Assembly (NCBI GenBank): GCA_951406725.2
Contig: OX597824.1
Coordinates: forward strand, 61,504,001-61,568,000
Origin: Octopus vulgaris
Taxonomy: Eukaryota
Reading direction: 5' to 3'
DNA length: 64,000 nt
Position numbers and translations under genes: made by a program. Positions within the stretch are counted from its first letter, which is position 1, and each line of letters starts with the position of its first letter. Positions 7,897-61,000 of the stretch are shown piece after piece. A model generated the notes under the pieces. It was not told the origin of the DNA and did not search any database. It saw only the letters and a list, made by a program, of their open reading frames with translations.

Positions 7897-9162
7897 ATAT
7901 CTTCATCCCATAACTAATGCGGTTTTCTCAATTGTATGAACTAAAAGTCGGAGGGGGATGGGATAAACTATCTGCATCAAATTGCTATAAAAGGTAGTAT
8001 TTTTACCTTGTACTTATTCCTAGTGCAAGTTTTCGAGAGTGCAGTTCAATTTTGACAGTTATATTTTGAAAGCTATAATAGAAATGACAAAGGAGCATAT
8101 CCGCCATATTTCTATTTATGAGTTCAATAAAAGCAACAACGCAATGGAAAGTGCGAGGAATACTAATGCAGTTTCATGGGAATCGGACAATAAGCGTAAG
8201 CTAGTGTCAACAGTGGTTCCAGAATTTCCGAGCCGGAAACTATTGCCTAAAAGACTAACCTCGTCCAGGAAGATCTGTAGAACCCGATGAGGACGTCCTG
8301 CAAATCTTGGAGGAACAAAATCCCATCGTAACAGTTGAGGAACTAGCAGAGAAGCTTGGATTTGGTCATTCAACCATTCATCGATACCTGCGTGCCATCG
8401 GAAAAACCAGCAAATTGTGTCAATGGGTTCCTATATCGGAGTCTAATTGCTCGCAGAGAGTTCATCTGTGATATTCTTTGCTGTCACTTCTCACGAATAA
8501 ACCTTTTTCCCACCGAACAGTGACTGGTGAGGAGAAATGGGTTCTCTTTAAAAATGTCAAGTGCCGGAGACAGTTGGTAGGGAAAGGAGAAACACCGGCA
8601 GTCCAGGCTAAAGAAGGTCTTCACCAACATATAGTGTTGTTATATTTGGTGGGATATGAAAAGTTTAGTCCACTTTCAACCTTGAAACCCAAACGAAAGG
8701 AGATCTACAGCGAGCAGCTTGAGCGGCTTAAATCAGCGCTTGAAGAACAACGACCATTTTTGATTTCAAGACGAAAGGTGTTCTTCCATCAGGATAATGC
8801 TCGGCCACACAGCGAAGATGACATTCCAGAGGCTGGAGCAGTTCGAATGGGAAACGATGCCGCACCCACCATATTCGCTGGACATTACCCTATCTGATTA
8901 TCATTTAGTCTGTAGTCTTCAAAATCATTTGGATAGAAAAATTATGAATTCTGTAGACAAGATCAGAACAGTACTGGAGGAGTATTTTCGTCACGCACAT
9001 ATGAATCTTGGAAGATGGGTCTTGCAAGTCTATCAGATAGATGGAAGAACATTGTAGAAAATAAAGGAGAGTATATTTTAGATTAAAAGAGGATGATGTT
9101 TATCTTAATTTTGAAAAATAAAAAGTATTAAAAAAATGCATTATTTATGGGATGACCCAATA
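7897..9162 (+). mobile_element. full-length decayed mariner (DD34D) transposon
   Basis: TIRs TCATCCCATAACTAATGC / GCATTATTTATGGGATGA, about 1.27 kb apart; frameshifted transposase at about 8084-9086 with VTGEEKW, FHQDNARPH and PHPPYSLDITLSDYHL. Confidence 0.95.
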
Positions 9163-18085: not shown

Positions 18086-19765
18086 GAACCTATTTGAACG
18101 AGAAATTAAAGAGTCTACCAAAGGATTCAGTGTTGGAATGGGTCGGCTACGTACCTCACTTCGTAATATATATATTTTTTCATTCATTTTTGTTTCTTAT
18201 CCGAATTTCATACTTATTTATCATCGATTATAAGTTCCATTCGTCTCCTGACCTCTTGTCTGTCCTAGTATCGTCCACTCGATTTTTAAAAATCTTTACG
18301 GTTAATAAAGAAAAGAGATTATCAAATACTTCAAAAGTAGAAGATTTTGACTTCGCATCACTTTCGGAATTATTAAGTGATGTGATACAGCCACAACTAT
18401 ACGTTGGGAATCGCTGCTGCCAAAAGGCTTAGCATTAGTATAATTTCATGTTAGAAATATTCTTGAAGCATTCCAAAGCAAGTTAACAATGATTTCCCTT
18501 CCAAACTTTATAAACCAGAAAAGATAGCTTGTTAAATTCTCTTGTAATGTTAAATATCATTTGCCATTAACGTTCAAGCTGAAATTAGTATTGATAATAA
18601 ATGATTATATTTGAAAGAATTAATGAGAATTTCAGAGACATTTGACTCAAGCTTGCATTCATTTTCTAAGGAGGCTTTCTATATAATTCTATATAAATGT
18701 TCGCTTTTAACATTTTCTTGCGAGGCAAATATTCATAAATATAACGTATCCTGTAGTCCATCGAATCAATCCCTATATATTACAGCTACTAATTTAATCG
18801 ACATTAACTCTTTTGTTACCGTATTTCTGTTGAGCTGCTTTGTGTCTCTTCAATTAATTTTAGATATAACAAAGAATTTAGTAAAATAACTTAGTTATCA
18901 ATAAGCTAGTGTTAGCAACATAAATCGTGACTAAGGTTTCGTGGAAGATTTTAATTCAGAACTTTTGAAAACAAGACATTTATACTACAGAGCCAGAGGC
19001 GGTTTTACTTACAGTAATGTATTTAGTCTTTTAATTTTAGGCTTATCTAATGTCAAATTGCTGACGTTGTATAAATGTGCGAATAAAGAAAATAGGATTA
19101 ATTTGTTTTAGTAGACAATAAACGGACAAATGACAAAGATTTATGACTTAGGCACAGGGCCAAATTTTGTAGAAGATGAGTGAATTGAATCTACTCCAAC
19201 ATATCAATAGTGCCCATGATATACGCCACCGCACACCGAAGGATTCTAATGATGAACATATATTTTCTTTTCAAAAGAAACAACACATATGAAAGAAGAA
19301 ATGTAATGAGAACTTCGCAGATTAAAAATAATACATAGAATCAAGAAGCTAGAAGAAATGATGCATTGCTCAAAACCATGTATGTGCGTATGTATGTGAG
19401 TAATTGAATGAGTGAGAGTGTGTGTTAGTGAGTGAGAGAGTGAATGTGTGAGTGAGTATGTATGTGTGCATGTAATTACATATATATATATATTGGCCTG
19501 CTCGCTTAGCCAGGGGGTGGCGTCATTCGAAGGCTAAAACAATGCGAACGCATTGTGACCAGCGATGTGTTGCAACATCTGATGGTCTGGTCGGTCACGT
19601 GACGTGATATATATATATATATATAAATAAATGTGTGTGTGTGTGTGTGTCTAAGTTTATGTCTATGTGTGTGCGCAGACATATAGATACATTCATACGC
19701 GTTGTGTATGACTGTATGTATGTATGTATGTATGTAAGCAAACTTTTAAGCATATATGTGTATAT

Positions 19766-19816
19766 ATAGTACAAATATATAGAGAAACAAAGAAGACAGG
19801 TGTAGGAACAACAAGC
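19766..19816 (-). mobile_element. last ~50 nt of a PLE-family 3' terminus
   Basis: GCTTGTTGTTCCTACACCTGTCTTC...AACTA-like end matches 31394-31445 (+) and 58036-58089 (-). Confidence 0.75.
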
Positions 19817-19911
19817 AAAAATATGGAACGCTTCACGAATTTGAGTGTCATCCTTGTGCAGGGGCCATGTTAATATTCTCTGTATCGTTCCAGTTTTAGA
19901 ATAAGTACTGC

Positions 19912-19912
<1 letters not shown>
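19817..19912 (-). pseudogene. U6: U6 snRNA retrocopy lacking about 11 nt at the 5' end
   Basis: GGCAGTACTTATTCTAAAACTGGAACGATACAGAGAATATTAACATGGCCCCTGCACAAGGATGACACTCAAATTCGTGAAGCGTTCCATATTTTT; ACAGAGA box intact, AGC triad mutated, (GT)n upstream instead of a promoter. Confidence 0.95.
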
Positions 19913-19954
<42 letters not shown>

Positions 19955-26585: not shown

Positions 26586-29500
26586 GAGAGAGAACATCGG
26601 GGACGTTTAACATGTGAGAGCGAAAAAACAGTGGCTCCGAAATATATCCACAAACATCAGAAACAAAAACATTGTATGGAGCTAAAATATAACTGACAAA
26701 GGATTGGACTATATCCGAGTAAGTAATACTCATTGAAATTTATTGCTATTTTCCAAACGAAATGATGTATTTTAACTCGATAGCACATGTAAACATGCTT
26801 GATACATTACGATCCATCATCACCAGATCATCTCCGGCCCCAAACACCATGTACAAAAAAACTACGAATAAATTAAAGAATACCGGTATTATTCAACCCA
26901 AGAATAACAACCGGGAAGTACGTACTTTGAACCTGTTACAAAAAAAGTACGAAAAACTACGCGTGTAAAACAATGTGACAACAGAAATGAACGGATCGGT
27001 ACCCTACGAAAATGACGACCGTCAAAATAATGGGCCGGACGTTATTCCTCATGTCCTGCAAATAAAACCAAAAAGGCATAAATGGACACGTGAGGAATAC
27101 ATTTCAATCCTACACGCTTACTTTACAGCAGTGTTCTACCCAAAGAGCGAAAACACAACGACATATACATATAAAATATGGAAGCAAAATAACATAAATA
27201 AAGACCTGGATATAGCAATGAACCCTAATAACCTAGCTAACGTGCGAAAATATATTCTCAACGCAAAGAAAATATCAGGAATAGAAATAGAACATTTAAA
27301 AGAAACAATACACCAGGAAAATATAGATAGAAGCCACACAACAATGACAAATACTATTAACACTGAAACAGTAAAACACGAAGACAAACGTAACACTTCC
27401 AACAAAAACGATGTAAACAAAAAACAACAAACCCAGACCGTAAGGATACATAATAATACACGACAAACAACAATCCAAAACACGACAAACAAACATACGA
27501 ATGAGAAAGAAAGCGACACAAATCTAAAGCCTGGAAACAACGAAGGGGAGCCTAATGATTATGATGTTATAAAAAGTAGAATAATCAAAGAACTGAAAAC
27601 CACAGAGCTCAAAATGGAACACCGACAATACATCCCAAAAATAAATATAGACAAAACAACAACATCAATTATAAACAGCATAAACCTAGCCGTCAAGGAA
27701 CTAATAGCCACTGAAACAAAAAGCGATATCACTGAGCTAAATAACTTAGTATACGCAGCAGCCACTGCAGCCACAGAAGAAGCTCGATACTCACTCAAAC
27801 CCATCCAAACAGGAGTACCACCACCCAAACAAACCCTGTGGATAAATAACATCCAAAACAAAATACAAAAAATGAGAAAAGATCTGTCGATTCTAAATGA
27901 AATCAGTAGACAATCAACGCTACTAAGCAACAAAAAGAAAACAAAAATACTCCGAAAATACAAGACAAAAAAGATTTACCTGAGATAAAAGAAAAGCTAA
28001 AGCAAGATATCCTTGCCAAAGCACAAAGGATCCGCCGGTACGAGAAACTCCAACGTTTCTTTGAACAAAACAAACAGTTCAACTCCAATCCCCAAAAGTC
28101 CTACCAAGAATTTGGCAAAAATAAAATAGAAATCACTGTAGCGCCAACGGTGGAAGAAGTGGAAGAATTCTGGAGAGAAATATGGTCGGCGAACGAACAA
28201 CCAAAAAAAAAAAAAAGGAGTATTAAAACAACAAACTCAGCATCTGAGGAACTTTGGACCCTCATAACAACTGAAGAGGTCATCCAGGGACTGCAAAAAC
28301 TAAGCAACTGGAAGGCACCTGGGCATGACAAGATCCCCAACTTCTGGTTGAAATATCTGACAGGAGTGCACAAAAAGCTGGCTGAAAAATTTAACAACAT
28401 ACTGGCAGAGCCAGAGACAATGCCTGGATGGCTCACGAAGGGGAAAACCATCTTAATTCCCAAATCAAATGAGACAGCAAAACCAGAAAACTACAGACCT
28501 ATATCCTGTCTCCCTACAATGTACAAAGCATTTACTGCAGTAATATCACAAAGATTGAACAAGCACCTGTACGAAAACAAACTGTTTCCAGAAGAGCAGA
28601 AAGGATGCCGCAAAGGCTCATATGGCTGTAAAGATCAACTAATGATCAATAAAGCCATAACTGAAGACAGCCACAGAAAGAAGAAAGGCCTCCGTATGGC
28701 CTGGATCGACTACCGAAAGGCGTTTGATAGCATCCCCCACACATGGATCCTCGAAACACTAGCCATTAACAAAGTTGCACCAACAATTATAAAATACATA
28801 GGACACTCTATGAATAAATGGCAGACAGTGCTACAGCTCCAAACATAAGAGGGACTTGTAAAAACCAAAGTCATCCCCATTAGAAGAGGAATATTCCAGG
28901 GAGACACGCTCTCTCCACTCCTTTTCTGCTTGGCACTGTCACCTCAATCGGATATGCTAAACAGAACTGAATGCAGATATAAATGTTACGGCAAAACGAT
29001 CAGCCACCTTTTATATATGGATGACCTAAAACTATACGCCACAAATGACAAACAGCTGGAAACACTACTAAAGACAGTTCATGGATTTACCAAAGAAATT
29101 GATATGAAATTTGGATTGGAGAAATGCGCCAAAGTAACCCTGAAAAGAGGAAAACAAGTTAAGAGTAGCAATAGCACACTAGATAAAACCAATGAAATAA
29201 AAGAATTAGACCAAAGCCACACTTACAAATACTTATGAATACATGAACTAGATAAGACACAACACACACAAGCGAAAGAGAAAATAAAAAAAGAATATTA
29301 CAGACGAGTTAGATCAATACTGAAAACAGAGCTCAATGCTAAAAACAAGATAATAGGTATGAACACTTTAGCCGCCTCTTCATGGCAAATACTGGACTAA
29401 ACTAAATGCAAAAGAAACAGACAAAGAAAAAGCCCAGCAATGGTTGAGAAGCTCAGGACTCAAAGCTGAGACAGAAGGATTTTTAATTGCAGCACAAGAT

Positions 29501-30200
29501 CAAAGCCTCCCCACCAGAAATTACCAAAAACATGTAATGAAAAGAAATATAACAAGTAACTGCAGAATATGTGGAGATGGACAAGAAACAATAAATCATA
29601 TTATCTCTGGCTGCCCAGTCCTGGCTAAGAAGGAATATATTCACAGACACGACAGAGTTGGGACCTATATACACTGGAAGCTATACCAAGATTATGAAAT
29701 AACAACAGAAAAAAGATGGTATAGGTACACACTTGAAAAGGTCACAGAAAACGAGAAAGCAACCATACTCTGGGATATGCCAATTCACAGAGATAAAGAA
29801 ATTAAGGCCAACAGACCAGATATAGTTGTCAGAGATCATGAAGAAAAAAATGCTTTCTAATTGATGTATCAATACCAGCAGATGACACCGTGTCTCTAAA
29901 AGAAATGGAGAAACTTACAAAATACAAAGACCTGGAAATAGAGGTAACCAGAAAGTGGAATCTAAAAACAGAAACAATTCCTATCATAAAAAAATATTCA
30001 GACAAATACATAACAAAGACATCAGGACTTACAAACACATCTAACATACAGAAAATTGCACTACTAGGCATTGCACACATCCTACGCAGAGCACTTTCCA
30101 TACAATAACCATCACAACAAATCATAGCACATACTCAAGGCACACAGAGCTGCGCCCGGTAGGGAAGTGAAAGCACGCGAAAAAAAATATACTACTGAAC
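26586..30200 (+). mobile_element. near full-length R4/Dong-clade LINE (RT plus restriction-like endonuclease), inactivated
   Basis: Frameshifted single ORF 26975-30108: RHKWTREE N-terminus, NWKAPGHD, NYRPISCL, WIDYRKAFDSIPH, QGDTLSP, HLLYMDDLK, CRIC..ETINHIISGC, RHD, NRPDIV, KxxKYKDL; flanked by (AAT)n at 26455-26585 and 30201-30293. Confidence 0.96.
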
Positions 30201-31249: not shown

Positions 31250-31446
31250 GTTATCCCTAAACATTTCCTTCTCTCTCTGTTATTTTTTCGTTTTCTTTCC
31301 GTTTTTCCCCTCTTAATACTTTCCTTCGAAGAGCGGAGGTTTGAAACGTCAAATACTTCTCCTTTCTTCCTGAGCGTTAACCTAATACACCTGCTTGTTA
31401 TTCCTTCACCTGTCTTCGTCTTTTGTTTTCAGTAAATTTGAACTAT
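31250..31446 (+). mobile_element. solo PLE 3' terminus with decayed minimal hammerhead (31320-31353)
   Basis: TTT-CCTTCGA-A-GAGC ggag GTTT-GAAA-CG-TC-AAA; homologous to 58036-58200 (-). Confidence 0.7.
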
Positions 31447-31877
31447 TCACGTATGTTATTTCATTTCAGAAATACAACATTCACTGGTGATCTCACATTG
31501 CTTAAGATATTCGCGCGTGAATTAAAATTTTAAAAACTAAAAGTGCAAACCACAGGAGCCAAATAGTAGAAATATTAAATATATTTTATAGACAATGCAA
31601 TTGTTGGTATGTTCGTTGGTTGATAACATCATTTTGAGAGAGCAGGAGAGAGATTAAAAGAGAGATACCACAGAGACTTAACAGAAAGGTTGATGGCACA
31701 AACTAGACTTGGTGACAGCTTTGAGCAAAGGAATGCTACATGCTTACACCGTGTGAGAAAATTGTTTTAGAGAACTTGAAGGAAATGGAGGAGGAAGAAC
31801 AGGTAGAAAAAGAAGAGGGGTAGTAAACGGAAGGGTAGATGGATGTAGATAGAACAGGCTCTGCAATAATTAATATA

Positions 31878-33135
31878 CGAGGAGTGTTCATTAAAGAATT
31901 TCTCTGACTCACTCACCAATTCTTGCAGGAAACGGAACTTGAATAGGTATTATCATACATATTCCTACATGACAAATTATAAATTGCCGCTTTCCTCTAG
32001 TATTAGTTTGTCTCTTACGGCTGCTAAAATGGACGAAGATGTTATAATGGAGGCAATTCAATGCAGATCAGTGATGATGTTCTTATACTTGAAAGGTCAT
32101 ACACAAAAAGAGACTTTCGATGAGATGAAAGATGTTTATGGTGACGATGCACCATCATACAACGTAGTTAAGCACTGGCACCGCCAGTTCAAATGTGGTC
32201 GGACATCAGTGGAAACTACTCCTATACCTGGACGACAACATACCGCCATTGATGACAACACTATAAAGTGGAAGCCACCATTTTGGTGGATCGTCGCGCA
32301 TAACTATTCAGTAACTAGCACAAGAGGTGAAGATAAGTTTATGGTCCGTGAAAAAAAGATATTCACAACCATTTGTACATACGGAAGTTGTCTGCACAAT
32401 CGATTTCCCGGATGCTCACACCGTTTCAGAAGTAGGAACGAGTCAATTACGCCCAGGTTCAATGCGCCAAAAACATGAGGAAGACCTTTTCGTCAGACTT
32501 ATAACACAGGATGAAACATGGGCCCATCACTATGATTCTGAGACTAAAGTCCAGTCGAAGCAAGGAAAGTATGATAACTCACCACCTCCAAAGAAGGCTC
32601 GTATTCTCAGCTGGCGAGGTGATACTCACAGTCTTTTGGGACCAAAGTGGAGTAGTGACGATGGATTTTCTGGCAAAGGGCACTTTAATTAACGGGGAAT
32701 ATCTTTTCTCTGCTGAAAAAATTGCGGGATGCATCTAAGCAGAGAGGTGAGGCGTGCTGATCAAAGGAGTCCGCCTCCTTCAAGACAACTCCCCAATTCA
32801 CAATGCGCATGTTGCCCAGATGAAAGCACACTCTTGCGGTTATAAAATTCTTCATTATCCCCCTTACTCTCCCGACCTCGCACCATCTGGCTTTCACCTC
32901 AAAAAACATGAAGTGTTTTTTGAAGGGGAAGCACTATTTGGATGTTGATCAACTTATTTCCGAGGTAAAGTCTTGGCTCCTGACGCAACCTATCGACTTC
33001 ACATCTGCATAAAGCGTTAGAAGTTTGACAGCATTGTTGGTGGCTATGTAGAGAAGGACTAATAATTATGCCAAGCTTCGTTTATCCCAGTTTTTGGGAA
33101 GTGGGTCAAGAAAAATCTTTAATGAACACCCCTCG
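31878..33135 (+). mobile_element. full-length decayed mariner (irritans-like), TA-flanked
   Basis: TIRs TA|CGAGGAGTGTTCATTAAAGA and TCTTTAATGAACACCCCTCG|TA; ITQDETWAHHYD, LLQDNSPIH, YPPYSPDLAPSGF; frameshifts. Confidence 0.95.
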
Positions 33136-40970: not shown

Positions 40971-42185
40971 CGAAGTGTACAGTATAATATATCCATCACG
41001 GCTGATCTTACCAATCGGTTTCGCGCTAGGGGTACAACGGAATTTTGGTAACAATCTAATTATATAACTCTACGCTCATCAGACGTAGCCGATATGGAAT
41101 GAAATATGGCAACTGATCTCTATTGTTGGAGGTGACAGAACGCATCCAGCTTGCGGTTGCTGTGAAAAGATGATGAAAGGAACCGGGTAGGGGATTTACC
41201 AATACATCGCCACTGGTTGGTTATGCTGTAAGTTGATAAGAGCTACTATGAAGTGTTTGTGGGAATTGTAAGCGTCTTTCAGCTTGGTGTTCTTGTGAAA
41301 GTGGGATATGTGTAGTGATACTGTATAACTTTTGCAGGAGATGTAGGCATCCATTACTGTGTTCATTAGAGTGTTTTCTTTCTATATTGGTTAAGGTATG
41401 GGGGCTTTATGTGTGCATTGAGTGTGTGTAGGGGTACAATATGTGTGGGAGTTTATATGGGAGGTGGTGGGAAACGATCCTTTTGGTATGTGTCCGCCGT
41501 GTTGGGGCGTACATGTTTGTATGTGGGTGCGTTGATGAATGCTCTGGTCAAACTCTTTGCCGGATTCCAGAGTATTGGAGGAGAGCTGAGGCTGGAGGAC
41601 TGATGATCGTAGTCATGATGGGGCATGCTCGAATGATCTTCCTTTCATGTGGGCTAGGGTTAAATACTTCACCTCTGCTATTCAGATAAATACATGGATG
41701 CTGGGTGCTCTTTAAAATCGCTTTCTCATCTAGGAATAGGCTGCACTTCCTGCTGCTATTAAAGTACGGTTTACATTTCTCCAGGATATTCTTCTTTATG
41801 TTCTACTCAGTGTGTGTGGCTTTCTTTCAAAGATGAAACGTGCTTTGGTCAGGGTTGTGGCGTTGCGTCTCTGTGAGATGTCAAAGGAGGACTTGTGGTT
41901 GTTGAAACGGATTCTGAAGGGGCCTTGAGTTATTCCTACATACTTTCGCATATTCGGTTGCCCATTTGATCCTATAGCTGTTGCCCCTGCCTTATATACA
42001 ACGGTCTCCGTGTTACAGTGGCCATTCAGTGGACATGTGTTACCCCTACATGAGCATTCTGCTTTTGCCTCGGGCGTTGGTCTACATACTAAAATCTTTT
42101 TTACATTAGGTGCACAGGTATAGGAAATTCTTAGGGTATGCCTATTGAATATTTTGTCGAATCTATTTGTACGGGTGAAGCTAAG
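40971..42185 (-). mobile_element. Penelope-like element 3' part (GIY-YIG endonuclease, 3' UTR, hammerhead)
   Basis: KIFNRHTLRISYTC...CSCRGNTCPLNGHCNTETVVYKA...KYVGITQGPFRIRFNNHKSSF; ends in (TA)n. Confidence 0.88.
40999..41091 (-). ncRNA. type-I hammerhead ribozyme, intact core
   Basis: CGGCT.acgT-CTGATGA-GCGTAG...CTAGCGC-GAAA-CCGATTGG-TA-Agatc.AGCCG. Confidence 0.8.
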
Positions 42186-42299
42186 AAAAGTTTACTCGGG
42201 TTGTAATATTTCAGGAGAGAAATTTATTAATTTCAGAGAAGTACAAAGCTCTAATCACCTTCAAAATAGGATCCTCTAACTTAAATGCACTTGTAGCGC

Positions 42300-54795: not shown

Positions 54796-55069
54796 GTGAC
54801 GTTATGTTTATATTGCATGGAGTTATCGTTGTATTTATTTTCAGGAGATTTCTAAATAAGGGGAGGTAGTGAGTGATTTCTTCCGGTGTAAGGGAGATAA
54901 TCGCTTAAAATTTTTTTTCCCTATATATATGTATATATATCTAGACACATATATGCATACATATATATGATATATAGATATATCTGTATACTGTATCTAT
55001 ATCTATATCTATATCTATCTATCTCTCCCCCTCTCTCTCTCTATATATATATATATACATATATATATA

Positions 55070-55712
55070 ATGTTCGTAATGGTGTCTACAAATGACTGCC
55101 AGGACTTTTTGATGTTTCTGATGTTAGTGGGTGTGTATGTGTGCGTGAAGGACCAATCGACTTGTGCAATGTCATTATTGATCGCTTCCCAGTATGCATT
55201 GTGGAAATCCATAGTGTCAAATGGATGAACAGGAGGGATGACATTTGTTTTGCATTTTGGCCGGTGAAATCTCAGATCACAGAGAACCATGTCATGATCA
55301 GAGAGTAGAGTTTTCTCCACTGCAACATTATGGATAGTATCAGTGTGATTGCTGAAAATTAAGTCTAAGACGTTTTTGTGACATCTCGTTGGTTCGAGCA
55401 CCAATTGGAACAGGAAGAAATCATCCATGAAGTCAAGAAGCGATTCCACTGCCTCCCTTGCAGGGGTTGAGAGAGAAGAACCTGGCAGCAGACTGTTTGT
55501 AGACCAGTCAACCCCGGGAAGGTTGAAGTCTCCCATCATTAAAATGTTGTCAGGTTGACACTGCTGATTGAAACACTTTATGTTGTTGAGGCATTCCTTG
55601 AAGCATGGTAGGGGCGTTTGGGGTGGTCTGTAGAGCCCAACTACTGTTACGTTGTTGGTTTGACTGAATACAGCGACTGCTTTGCAAACACACCCCATTA
55701 AGATCTGCAAAT
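55070..55712 (-). pseudogene. APE endonuclease segment of a CR1/L2-group LINE (inverted 5' part)
   Basis: VVGLYRPP, MMGDFNLPGVDW, PTR..NVLDLIFSN, LSDHDMV. Confidence 0.92.
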
Positions 55713-57312
55713 AAATCTAAGTGTCGAATCCCTAGAAATAGAAAATCTCTCATCAGGAAAATTAAAAGAATTAACAAAAAAATCAACAAGCTGAAATACT
55801 GTCAACAGCAACACACCAACCTGACTGTCATCTCGTCGCTAGAGATTAAAAAACAAACTCCAAAACAACATGATGTCTATCATCAATAGTCAGAGAAGAG
55901 CTGAAGAGGCCTGGGCCATTGAGAAGATCAAACTCAATCCCAAAGTGTTCATTTCATTTGCAAAAAGACACAGAGTCACTGGTTCTACTGTTGGCCCTCT
56001 GATTGAAGAAAATGGTACTCTTCAAGACAATGCCAAAACCATGGGAGAGATATTGCAGAAACAATATTGCTCTGTTTTCTGCAATCCTGATATGACTGAT
56101 CTGGGCTGTATCAGTGATGTTACTCCCCAATACACTTTATCAGACATAACCTTTGGCGCTCCTGATGTGTTAGCAGCAATAAAGGAAATGAAGCATAATT
56201 CAGCAGTAGGTCCCGATAGTTTCCCTGCTTGTGTCTTGAAGATGTATCAACACCAAATTGCACCCCCTCTAGCCAATCTGTGGCGGAAGTCACTGGATGC
56301 TGGATATATCGCAGAAGACCTTCTATCCCAGTCTGTTGTCCCAGTTTTCAAGAAAAGAAACAAATCGCTTGCCGTGAATTACCGTCCAATCTCACTCACC
56401 TCTCATATCATTAAGGTATTTGAGAGAGTGCTGAGATCGCGTATGACTCACTTCCTTGAGAGTCATAATATGCTGAACTCCAACCAGCATGAATATATGA
56501 ATATATATATATGGATTCCATTTTGATGACATTTTGAGAGCCTTGGGAGAGGGTTCCAACACTGATGTCATCTACCTTGATTTCAGCAAGGCCTTTGACA
56601 AGGTTGATCATAAGATCCTTTTGAGAAAGCTGTCCAATATTGGTGTCACTGGAAAGCTACTGCAGTGGATCAAGTGCTTCCTGTCTAACAGAACCCAACA
56701 TGTTGTAGTCGAAGGAGTCAAATCCAGCCCAGCCAAAGTCAGCAGTGGTGTCCCACAAGGCATTGTGTTGGGCCCACTTCTCTTCATCATCTACATTAAT
56801 GATATTACTGACACCATCAAACACAGTAACATCATAACCTTCGCTGATGATTCCAAGCTCCAGAAGGTCATCAATGGCGTGGATGTATTCACTCCAACGA
56901 CGCCGTGAACGCTACATTATATGTATGATGTGGAAAATATTCCATCAGCACTGACCGAATGATGTTGGCATCACCTTCAAAATACATCCAAGGCTTGGAC
57001 CACGTGCCATCCGTCCACAACAAAAATCTAAAGCGCATCACATAACGACAATACGGCACAATTATTTCACCTCAATTGGACCCGCTCTCTTCAACATTAG
57101 ACCAGGACACGTCAAAACAGAAACTGACCACACAAAATTCAAGAAGTCTTTGGACAAATTCCTTCAAACAGACCCGGACAAACCACCCACACCCGGATAT
57201 GTCTCCGCAAACAATAACTCTCTGCTCGAATGGGCCTCGGTGCTCAAATCCTGAATTGAAAGATTTCGCCAGGGCAAATACTGGCCAAAACCTTTCTAAG
57301 TTATTCTAAGTT
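55713..57312 (+). mobile_element. CR1/L2-group LINE RT and 3' end with internal deletions
   Basis: SAVGPDS, NYRPISLTS, VIYLDFSKAFDKVDH, SGVPQGIVLGPLLF, FADDSKL; tail TTCTAAGTTA twice, then (TA)n. Confidence 0.93.
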
Positions 57313-58035: not shown

Positions 58036-61000
58036 TAGTTGAAATTTACCAAAAAACAAAAGACGAAGCAAGGTGTGTGTACAACAAGCAGGTGTCTTAG
58101 TTTGACGCTCGGGAAAGTGAGAAATTCTTTTACATTTCGAGCCTACGCTCTTCAACTGAAAGGAATAAGAGAAAATAACCAGAGAGACAAGAAAAAACTT
58201 GTGAATTTATCTATAAAGCATGGCCGCTGTTTGGGAGAAAAAGTTTGACAGGAGAGTTAGAACGAAAGGGGATATACTAAAGTACTAGTGATCCAAAAAT
58301 AAAGGTGCGCTTACGTGCATGTGTATGTAACAATATTTATGCGTCTGTGTGTGGATAAGGGCTGGTGACCTTTCCGTGTGGATGTGTGAGTGTGCGTCTG
58401 TAATATATGGGTATGCAGAAGATGGTGTTTGGTGTGTGTGCTGGGAAGTGGTCAGTGCTAGTGTGTGTGGAGTGATGTGGTGTGGTCGTGTGTAGTGTTG
58501 GTGTGGTGGTAGTATGGTGTGGCGGTGTGGGGTTGTGGGTGCGTGTGGTGGGTATGTGGGAGTGGGGTGTGAGGGGATTGTGGTTGGCGGGGTATCAATG
58601 AAGAGAGAAGGTGGATAGGAGTGAAGAGAGGGAGTAGGTGGCAGAGCAGGAGAGTAGAGGTGGGTAGGAGGGAAGAGAGGAAGTGGGTATCAGATAAAGA
58701 GAGAAGTGGAGGGGCAATGAAGGGGCAGGTGCGGGGAGAGAGAGCAAAGGCATGGTCCACAGAACGCGCTCTGGCAAGGGCTGTGTGGATATTGGTGAGG
58801 GGAAATCCACAAAAGATGAAGTGGCGAGCCATAAGTTGAGTCTGAGTTTAACATGATGGTTGTCACCGCAGAAGGTGAAATTGGGAGTAGGGGGTGGAAA
58901 GCTTGGTGTAGGTAGGGTACGAGGAGGAGACGTTAAAGTAGGAGTGTGAGTAGATGTGTTTGTAGTGGATGGAGTTAGTGAGAGCGGAGTGGTGTATGCT
59001 GACCGAAATGTCGAGAAAGGCGACGGAAGTATTGGAAATAGTGCAGGAGAATGCGAGGGCAGGATGGAAGGATTGGACAAAAGAGAGGAAGGAGTCTAGT
59101 TGTTCCCGGGATAGTGAGGTCGCTCCGATACAATCATCAATATAACGACCGTATACTTCGGGAGTGAGACCAGTGAATCGTGAGAATATTTGGGCTTCAA
59201 CATAGTCAACAAATAGGCTCCCATAGTTGGGGCCCATTCTCGTTTCCATGCCCACTCCCGATACCTGTTGGGTAAAATACCCCGTGAACGAGAAGCAGTT
59301 GAGGGTGTGAACAAGTTCGACACATGAAGTGTGGAGGTGTCAGTTTGGGTGTTGGGTCGAAGATCTAAGAAGTGTTAGAGTTCAAGAAGTTTTGTAGGAT
59401 CACCGTATATAGACTTATGATATCAAGAGGGGAGAGACGTTTAGAGGGGTCAGGAGGGAAGGAGAAAGTGTTGAAGAGACGGAGAGCTTGGTTTGTGACG
59501 TGGATGTGGCAGGGGAGGGAAGCCACTAGGCGGGGCAAGGATACTGTCGAGGTATTTTGAGATCAATTCCGCGGGGCAGTTACAGGCAGAGACAATGGGG
59601 CAGCCAGGTTAGTTGGGGTTGTAGATTTTGGGGAAGAAGTAAATGGTAGGGTGTATGAAGTGTGGATAATGAGGTTGCAGGCGGTAGGAGGAAGACGGGA
59701 GGAGGTGATGACGTCATGGATAGAGGAGGACACAGTCTGTTGATAGTCAGGCCTAGGGCTTAAAGGCAGAAGGCAATAGAATTAGGTGTCTTGAAGTTGG
59801 CGGAGAACTTCAGCTTTGTGTCTGCGTGTCACACCACCACAGTTATACCCAGCCGGTTTTATGATGATGTCGTTGCGGCGTCGGAGACATCGAAGGGCCG
59901 AGAGGTCGGCCGGGGTTATGTTAAAATATTGGGGACGCCTGCGGAAGTTAAACCGGTCCTAACACGTTGGCAGATGCTAGCAAAATGATCGAGTGCCTGG
60001 AAGTGGCCAGGAGCTAGCATCCAGTGCGATGGTCGGCGGCCAACCTAGGTGAAACAGTCCTCTTAATTAGATGCAGTTGGAGTTTTGTGGAATAGTGCAT
60101 ATAGCCTGATGCGGCGCAGAAAGCTATGAATACGGGCCTGAAATTCGTTACTGGATGAAGTGAGGGGGATGAAGTGTAGACCCTTACTGAGAAGAGAGCG
60201 CTCCGGCCCAGAGAGGGGAAGATCAGGAGGAATGGTAACAACAGACTAAAGCGGGGAAGGGGTGGATGAGTTAGATGTGGGGGTGAGGGGGTAGTAAAAA
60301 GCTGGAAGGAGGGAGAGGAGGAGTGAGTGGAGAGTAACAGAAGGGTTGCGGTGGAGTGTATCGGGGATTGATCGTGGTGGAAGTTGTAGTGGCATCGGGT
60401 GTGACAGAATGAAGGAGTGAGTGGAGTTTATGCTGTTTAGTGCGAGCGAGGGACTCGTGAAAAACATGATTTAAATAGATTATGAAGCGTAGAGTGGAAT
60501 ATGCAAAGGAAGGTGAAAGAGAGGAGAAAAAATGGAATAAGTGAGAGGGAGAAGGCGTTCGAGGTTTTGTATCTTGGAGAGATTAGAAAGTATGGTGCAT
60601 GCATAAGGTGGTAAGAAGTAGTACGGAGTATAGGTAAGATGGCAGAAGTAGAGTTGAAAGTGGAGTGGAAATGGAGGCTGAAAAATTTGGGATGAGGTAG
60701 CAGTGAAGGCAGCGACTGAGAGAGGAAACGTGGCTAGAGAAGTGGGTTTTTCTAAAAATCAGTAGAGAAATCTTAAAAGAAGTTTGAAAGTAGCGCAAAG
60801 GATTCGTGGAACGGTGCTTCTTTAGGCGGTGCTGAAGGTGAAGGAGGAAAGATTTATAATCGGGCATTCTGGAAAAAGGAGCAAAAGGAAAAGTCGTGAA
60901 GAAAAGAAAAAAAGGTGAAAGTGAGAGAAAAGGAGAGAGAGATGCAAAGGAACAACGTACGGAGTAAGAAAAAACAAAGTTCAAAAAGGTTCAAAGAATT

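Follow-up and report, generated by a model that had tools for sequence, protein, structure and literature searches.

A U6 snRNA retrocopy fused to the 3' end of a Penelope-like element in Octopus vulgaris, and related U6 fusions at predicted hammerhead cut sites

Chimeras of U6 snRNA have been described with L1, L2, RTE and SINEs (PMC4476161; PMC11838501). In human cells mature U6 ends in five U and a cyclic phosphate, and the ligase RtcB joins this end to RNA with a 5'-OH (PMC6789731); RtcB also ligates hammerhead ribozyme products in vitro (PMC7229834). Penelope-like elements (PLEs) carry hammerheads of their own, for which weak cleavage in vitro is reported (PMC4209133, PMC11167929). The 2014 study states that in vivo evidence for these ribozymes is absent (PMC4209133), and the 2024 study found no RNA-seq reads that end at the PLE hammerhead cut (PMC11167929). 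A literature search, mostly of journals open without subscription, returned neither a U6-PLE chimera nor U6 joined at ribozyme cuts.

The stretch analysed here (the window) comprises 64,000 nucleotides of the Octopus vulgaris genome. A U6 retrocopy on its minus strand runs directly into the 3' end of a PLE family, F1 (Table 1). An Rfam search of the window placed U6 at 19817-19922 on the minus strand (94.5 bits); true U6 begins at 19912, which corresponds to U6 nt 12, the first 11 nt being missing and a (GT)18 flank standing in their place. The window U6 is identical to U6 copies elsewhere in the genome at 89-90 of 96 positions. Its five T continue without a spacer into a 50-nt stretch (19816-19767) that aligns with two other ends in the window, at 31393-31445 and 58036-58089. 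A preliminary description of the window had read the locus as a minus-strand U6 retrocopy fused to a PLE 3' terminus, with a tail equal to the last ~50 nt of the PLE end also present at 31394-31445 and 58036-58089; U6 nt 12-107, the five T and the F1 tail bear this out, and the alignment confirms the origin of the tail. As it also stated, there is no PLE sequence 5' of the U6, and on this ground we rejected insertion of U6 into an older PLE. The junction lies 41 nt downstream of the predicted F1 hammerhead site, which bears out the earlier caution that it was ~40 nt past the cut: the window copy is not at the cut. One T at the junction is a possible microhomology.

Table 1. Features of the window and loci elsewhere in the genome at which U6 is joined at a predicted hammerhead cut.
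Feature	Location	Strand	Remarks
U6 snRNA retrocopy, nt 12-107, five T at end	19817..19912	-	Rfam and in-genome U6 comparison
PLE family F1 3' end fused directly to U6	19767..19816	-	last 54 nt of the family minus 4 nt deleted
3' flank, (TA)n-rich	19752..19766	-	usual target of F1
(AC)/(GT)18 microsatellite, U6 5' flank	19915..19951	.	
Old F1-like PLE end, degenerate hammerhead core	31317..31445	+	comparison copy; predicted cut after 31350
F1 PLE: broken RT, 3' UTR, hammerhead motif, terminus	58036..59650	-	comparison copy; predicted hammerhead cut between 58131 and 58130
F2 cut-site U6 loci	C4, C25		
F3 cut-site U6 loci	C10, C23		
F4 cut-site U6 locus	C24		
F5 cut-site U6 loci	two on C3, one on C6		
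F6 cut-site U6 locus	C4		
F7 cut-site U6 loci	C8, C13		
F8 cut-site U6 locus	C9		
F9 cut-site U6 locus	L174		

The copy shows signs of age: its U6 is 7% and its tail 15% diverged, and the tail bears a 4-nt deletion. No target site duplication (TSD) was called, because microsatellite lies on both sides, (GT)n on one and (TA)n on the other. A search for the empty site in the contigs of four runs brought no coverage of 19588-19812, which had been skipped as a repeat. The intact 3' T-tract and the direct sense join to a 5'-truncated element end are those of a U6/retroelement chimeric pseudogene. These two features support the chimera reading of the preliminary description: the window copy is likely a dead chimeric retrocopy of U6 fused to a PLE end, and almost surely functionless.

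Other remnants in the window were labelled from motifs. We take 26969-30134 and 55015-57254 to be an R4/Dong-type and a CR1-type LINE, 8472-9057 and 31870-32692 to be two mariner transposases, and 41796-42191, which had no Pfam match, to be presumably a GIY-YIG domain. Pfam searches of short broken ORFs gave nothing, and there was no Rfam hammerhead among the matches listed for the window (150 of 152).

Around 30 genomic copies share the F1 terminus, and nearly all of them stop at one base ahead of a microsatellite; the best identity to the window tail, among the best 40 of 1743 first-look candidates scored, is 85%. F1 combines a fixed 3' end, 5' truncation and a microsatellite target. Its terminus sits downstream, in sense, of a reverse transcriptase (RT) in loci L385 and L389; in L400 Pfam RVT_1 scored above the cut-off and GIY-YIG (E=0.0056) below it, and a CxxxxCxxC motif in the linker and a YIG motif were read by eye. 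Judged by its sequence, F1 is a Neptune-type PLE with a predicted PLE-type RT and C-terminal GIY-YIG endonuclease, the Neptune label being taken from PMC8557442. The RT remnants of the window copy at 58036-59650, used as query, gave at least 150 matches, many near-identical, with open frames of up to 1202 aa. A very young Neptune-type subfamily (L377-L405, on many contigs) has many near-identical RT copies with frames of more than 1000 aa, and an A6U core.

The conserved hammerhead core comprises CUGANGA, GAAA and UH, and A6 is important for hammerhead catalysis. F1 departs from this core: in most of the F1 ends examined, those of the ORF-intact subfamily included, the first motif is CUGUUGA, with A6 replaced by U. 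The strict descriptor places a cut in F1 too. U6-F1 fusions at the F1 cut were found neither in the census of 220 U6 ends described below nor with three exact patterns, which undercount. Among the best 100 of 398 matches, stand-alone short F1 ends occupy 22 distinct loci and start, by eye, between -6 and +52; none of these 22 starts at the cut and one starts at +41. We also sought an F1 subfamily with its cut at the window junction, and there was none among the F1 ends examined. With A6U fixed in the F1 core and no U6 joined at the F1 cut, the window copy likely used a break made by something other than the ribozyme; F1 truncates at scattered places, and the chimera most likely used one of these.

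The genome (2.8 Gb, 227 contigs) contains 220 occurrences of the exact 22-nt U6 3' end, roughly one in four of the 910 first-look U6 candidates, and all 220 were fetched. They comprise 77 SINE heads and 74 short SINE-like modules (SINE labels assigned by eye), 8 cases of U6 gene array or read-through, 4 ends that adjoin (TA)n directly, the window copy, 16 arms at 12 loci with AT-rich partners ending in TA, and 40 others. A pattern for the window junction matched the window copy alone, genome-wide and among the 220 ends (1/220). The preliminary description had proposed that many copies with one junction would reveal a U6-headed SINE-like family; with a single copy of the junction, we rejected a U6-headed SINE.

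In the 151 SINE and module fusions U6 meets the 5' start of a SINE or 50-nt module or stops shortly ahead of it, the linkers being variable, and in four of them (L019, L025, L115, L234) duplications of 10-14 nt flank U6 and SINE as one unit. A TSD scan found 20/151 for SINE fusions against 6/151 for shuffled sequence; for PLE arms, where it is uninformative, the figures were 1/17 and 1/17. The census also recorded seven tandem U6 genes with a variant 5' stem at C1:139.42-139.43 Mb (L002, L003, L075-L081; period 1.0-1.4 kb), a U6 retrocopy on C16 with ~35 nt of the 3' trailer of that array (L007), and, at L094, L087 and L198, U6 fused to U6 in tandem and a pair of U6 copies whose tails face each other over a (TA)n run. 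One U6-module chimera is present six times, ~20 kb apart, at C1:132.42-132.53 Mb (L069-L074), likely by segmental duplication.

The AT-rich partners are of a different kind. Several had first been read as U6 gene trailers or mitochondrial RNA, a reading rejected when parent searches showed hammerhead-bearing repeats, and parent lookup puts each U6 junction at a predicted minimal type I hammerhead cut. Two of the 40 others were tested genome-wide as possible counterexamples; most of the remaining 38 look like inner pieces of SINEs or LINEs. One of the two, L174, belongs to a ninth family, F9, and has its junction at the cut, its sixth T being the first base of the cut product. The other, L221, joins U6 to a TA-ending family in inverted arms; the descriptor found no hammerhead in that family, and the fusion is off the cut. 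In L221 the partner of U6 is a composite made up of a SINE and a TA-ending repeat. At L478 this composite, 96% identical, is present with no U6, and L478 is a possible source locus of L221.

In total, 15 loci have PLE-like partners, 13 of them (in eight families) with the junction at the cut and two, the window copy and L221, off it. If junctions were uniform over an assumed 100 nt, with 3 nt tolerance, the chance of 13/15 at the cut would be ~2e-18; the two C3 loci of F5 are 350 kb apart and may not be independent. The search for junctions at the hammerhead cut, suggested in the preliminary description as a sign of ligation, was thus positive for other families and negative for the very copy that had prompted it. 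Exact patterns undercount such loci: the matches of the F2 gap pattern were limited to the two C4 arms, each at the cut, and the C25 locus was missed. A third F2 arm (C25:22216016-22216197, L162), 450 bp from the C25 chimera, has apparently kept no more of U6 than its final 8 nt ahead of the cut.

The hammerheads of F2-F9 are predicted, in part by eye, on minimal type I features: a core with a 3-8 pair, a helix I that closes across the cut, and a palindromic helix III. The strict descriptor set the cut at offset 0 for F2, F6, F8 and F9, and made no call for the single F3, F5 and F7 parents tried. For F3, F4, F5 and F7 the cut was read by eye from the core with its 3-8 pair and the palindromic helix III, helix I having a mismatch or bulge. 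The 3-8 pair is U3-A8, a described hammerhead variant (PMC4209133), in F3, F5, F6, F7 and F8; F3 also has A13C, and F9 (L464-L476) has A3-U8. In both F9 and F3 (L287-L297) U6 is joined at the predicted cut. A T stands just before the cut in the F4, F6 and F7 parents, so that the boundary within the T-run is ambiguous there; five T agree with the predicted site. Of the seven folded by minimum energy, F2 alone gave a hammerhead-like structure. Searches by tblastn with in-genome pieces placed GIY-YIG-like coding remnants in the sense orientation upstream of F2 (one locus), F5, F6, F7 (one), F8 (one) and F9, and found none upstream of F3.

The junctions themselves bear on mechanism. Five U6-derived T are present in 13/13 cut-site loci, as against 44/151 SINE and module fusions (Fisher p=4e-7), and in the window copy as well. 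A linker is absent from all 13, whereas SINE fusions have 3-9 T and linkers variable in length and sequence. Nine of the cut-site loci are two-armed, with an inverted, 5'-truncated second arm, which is a signature of PLEs (PMC8557442), and in 9/9 the two arms have one junction in common. At their 3' ends the arms differ in the tail, a feature that in vitro marks two RT start sites (PMC11167929). An RNA template for both arms would mean that the RNA already had the junction; the first cDNA could instead have been the template of the second arm, and the common junction would then be uninformative.

We propose that mature U6, with its 2',3'-cyclic phosphate end, would be joined by an RtcB-type ligase to the 5'-OH end of a PLE RNA. 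This end would be the ribozyme's 3' product in the sister loci and, in the window copy, whose family is A6U, a nuclease break located 41 nt downstream of that site, comparable to the variably truncated L1 of U6/L1 chimeras. The RT and endonuclease of the PLE would then copy the hybrid RNA into a TA microsatellite. To this reading, in which mature U6 is ligated to PLE RNA that has been broken and the product is retrotransposed by the PLE, we assign a probability of roughly 0.55 from sequence comparison. The fixed five T, the lack of a linker, the arms with the same junction and the known chemistry of U6 and RtcB favor it over a precise template jump.

Such a jump, the main rival, which we consider less likely than ligation, would dispense with a ligase: the PLE RT would run off the 5' end of its RNA onto the free 3' end of mature U6, the RNA ending at the hammerhead cut in the 13 sisters and at a stall or break at +41 in the window copy. 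Template switching is the standard reading of U6 chimeras with L1, L2, RTE and SINEs (PMC4476161), and PLE arms without U6 also begin at the cut (eight arms in seven loci start at -2..0, against 14 arms over -40..-3, with three U6 arms and two structural variants dropped from the count and queries that start at or before the cut), so that cut RNA does appear to serve as template. Against a jump, untemplated bases are absent from the cut junctions and the number of T is constant at five, in contrast to the 151 SINE fusions, and the junction is the same in both arms of all nine two-armed loci. The window copy taken alone is another matter: its junction is off the ribozyme site, it has the one-T microhomology, and short F1 ends are common, one starting at +41, so that a template switch fits nearly as well as ligation. 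For the 13 sister loci, both ligation and a template jump require hammerhead cleavage in vivo.

Two further explanations concern the window copy. As in its sisters, U6 may first have been attached at the hammerhead cut, here that of F1, with 41 nt deleted afterwards, which would agree with its five T, as in the cut-site class, and with an old copy that has suffered another deletion in its tail; we think this very improbable, as the left breakpoint would have to coincide exactly with the junction, the census and the three exact patterns yielded no U6 joined to F1 at the cut, and the F1 core is A6U. Least probable, by a little, is a U6 retrocopy in a microsatellite followed by a 5'-truncated F1 end exactly at its 3' end, for although 4/220 U6 ends adjoin (TA)n directly, short F1 ends standing alone in (TA)n are frequent and no TSD attests to co-insertion, no TA remains between U6 and tail, and the orientation, intact five T and terminal architecture match the 13 co-inserted loci.

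Returning to ligation, the 13 fusions are likely a fossil record of ribozyme cutting and RNA ligation in living cells. Under either leading mechanism, base-exact genomic junctions in eight families are evidence for hammerhead cutting by PLEs in vivo; they also extend U6 chimera formation to a third class of retroelement, and supply the ligation model with an identified source of 5'-OH ends. The window copy points to a natural negative control, the mutated-core F1, which lacks cut-site fusions despite many ORF-intact copies. We see about an even chance that the whole can be read as follows: PLE hammerheads would cut in the germ line, a tRNA ligase would join mature U6 to the cut end, and the PLE would insert the hybrid, so that U6 fusions would report activity in vivo, positive for the eight families (with canonical, U3-A8, A3-U8 and A13C cores) and negative for the highly active A6U family F1, which would transpose without cutting. 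The window copy alone is modest; the class to which it leads makes the question of PLE hammerhead activity in vivo testable.

Compared with known systems, the closest are the U6/LINE-1 chimeras attributed to RtcB ligation (Moldovan et al. 2019, PMC6789731), which share the intact U-tail, the direct sense join to a 5'-truncated 3' end and, probably, insertion as one unit; the ligation chemistry would be the same. The partner here is a PLE and not a non-LTR LINE, the target is a microsatellite with no readable TSD, and the 5'-OH end of the 13 sisters is set by the element's own ribozyme site, whereas L1 junctions, as described there, are variable and the nuclease undefined. The U6 chimeras of platypus, opossum and lizard, whose partners are L2, RTE and SINEs (Doucet et al. 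2015, PMC4476161), likewise place a 5'-truncated U6 before a short element end, and the 151 SINE and module fusions reported here resemble them; the accessible text of that study contains no PLE partner (no occurrence of "Penelope") and no ribozyme-defined junction. Non-LTR retrozymes (Cervera and De la Pena 2020, PMC7229834) have hammerhead products that are ligated by RtcB in vitro, and PLEs are their proposed mobilisers. They self-circularise and amplify as families, in contrast to the intermolecular join to a host snRNA and the single dead copies seen here. With the minimal type I hammerheads described for metazoan PLEs (Cervera and De la Pena 2014, PMC4209133; Frangieh et al. 2024, PMC11167929) our families share the short palindromic helix III, the U3-A8 variant, the position near the 3' terminus, the tail and the (TA)-rich targets; what distinguishes the present loci from the material in those two papers is that genomic junctions fall on the predicted cut.
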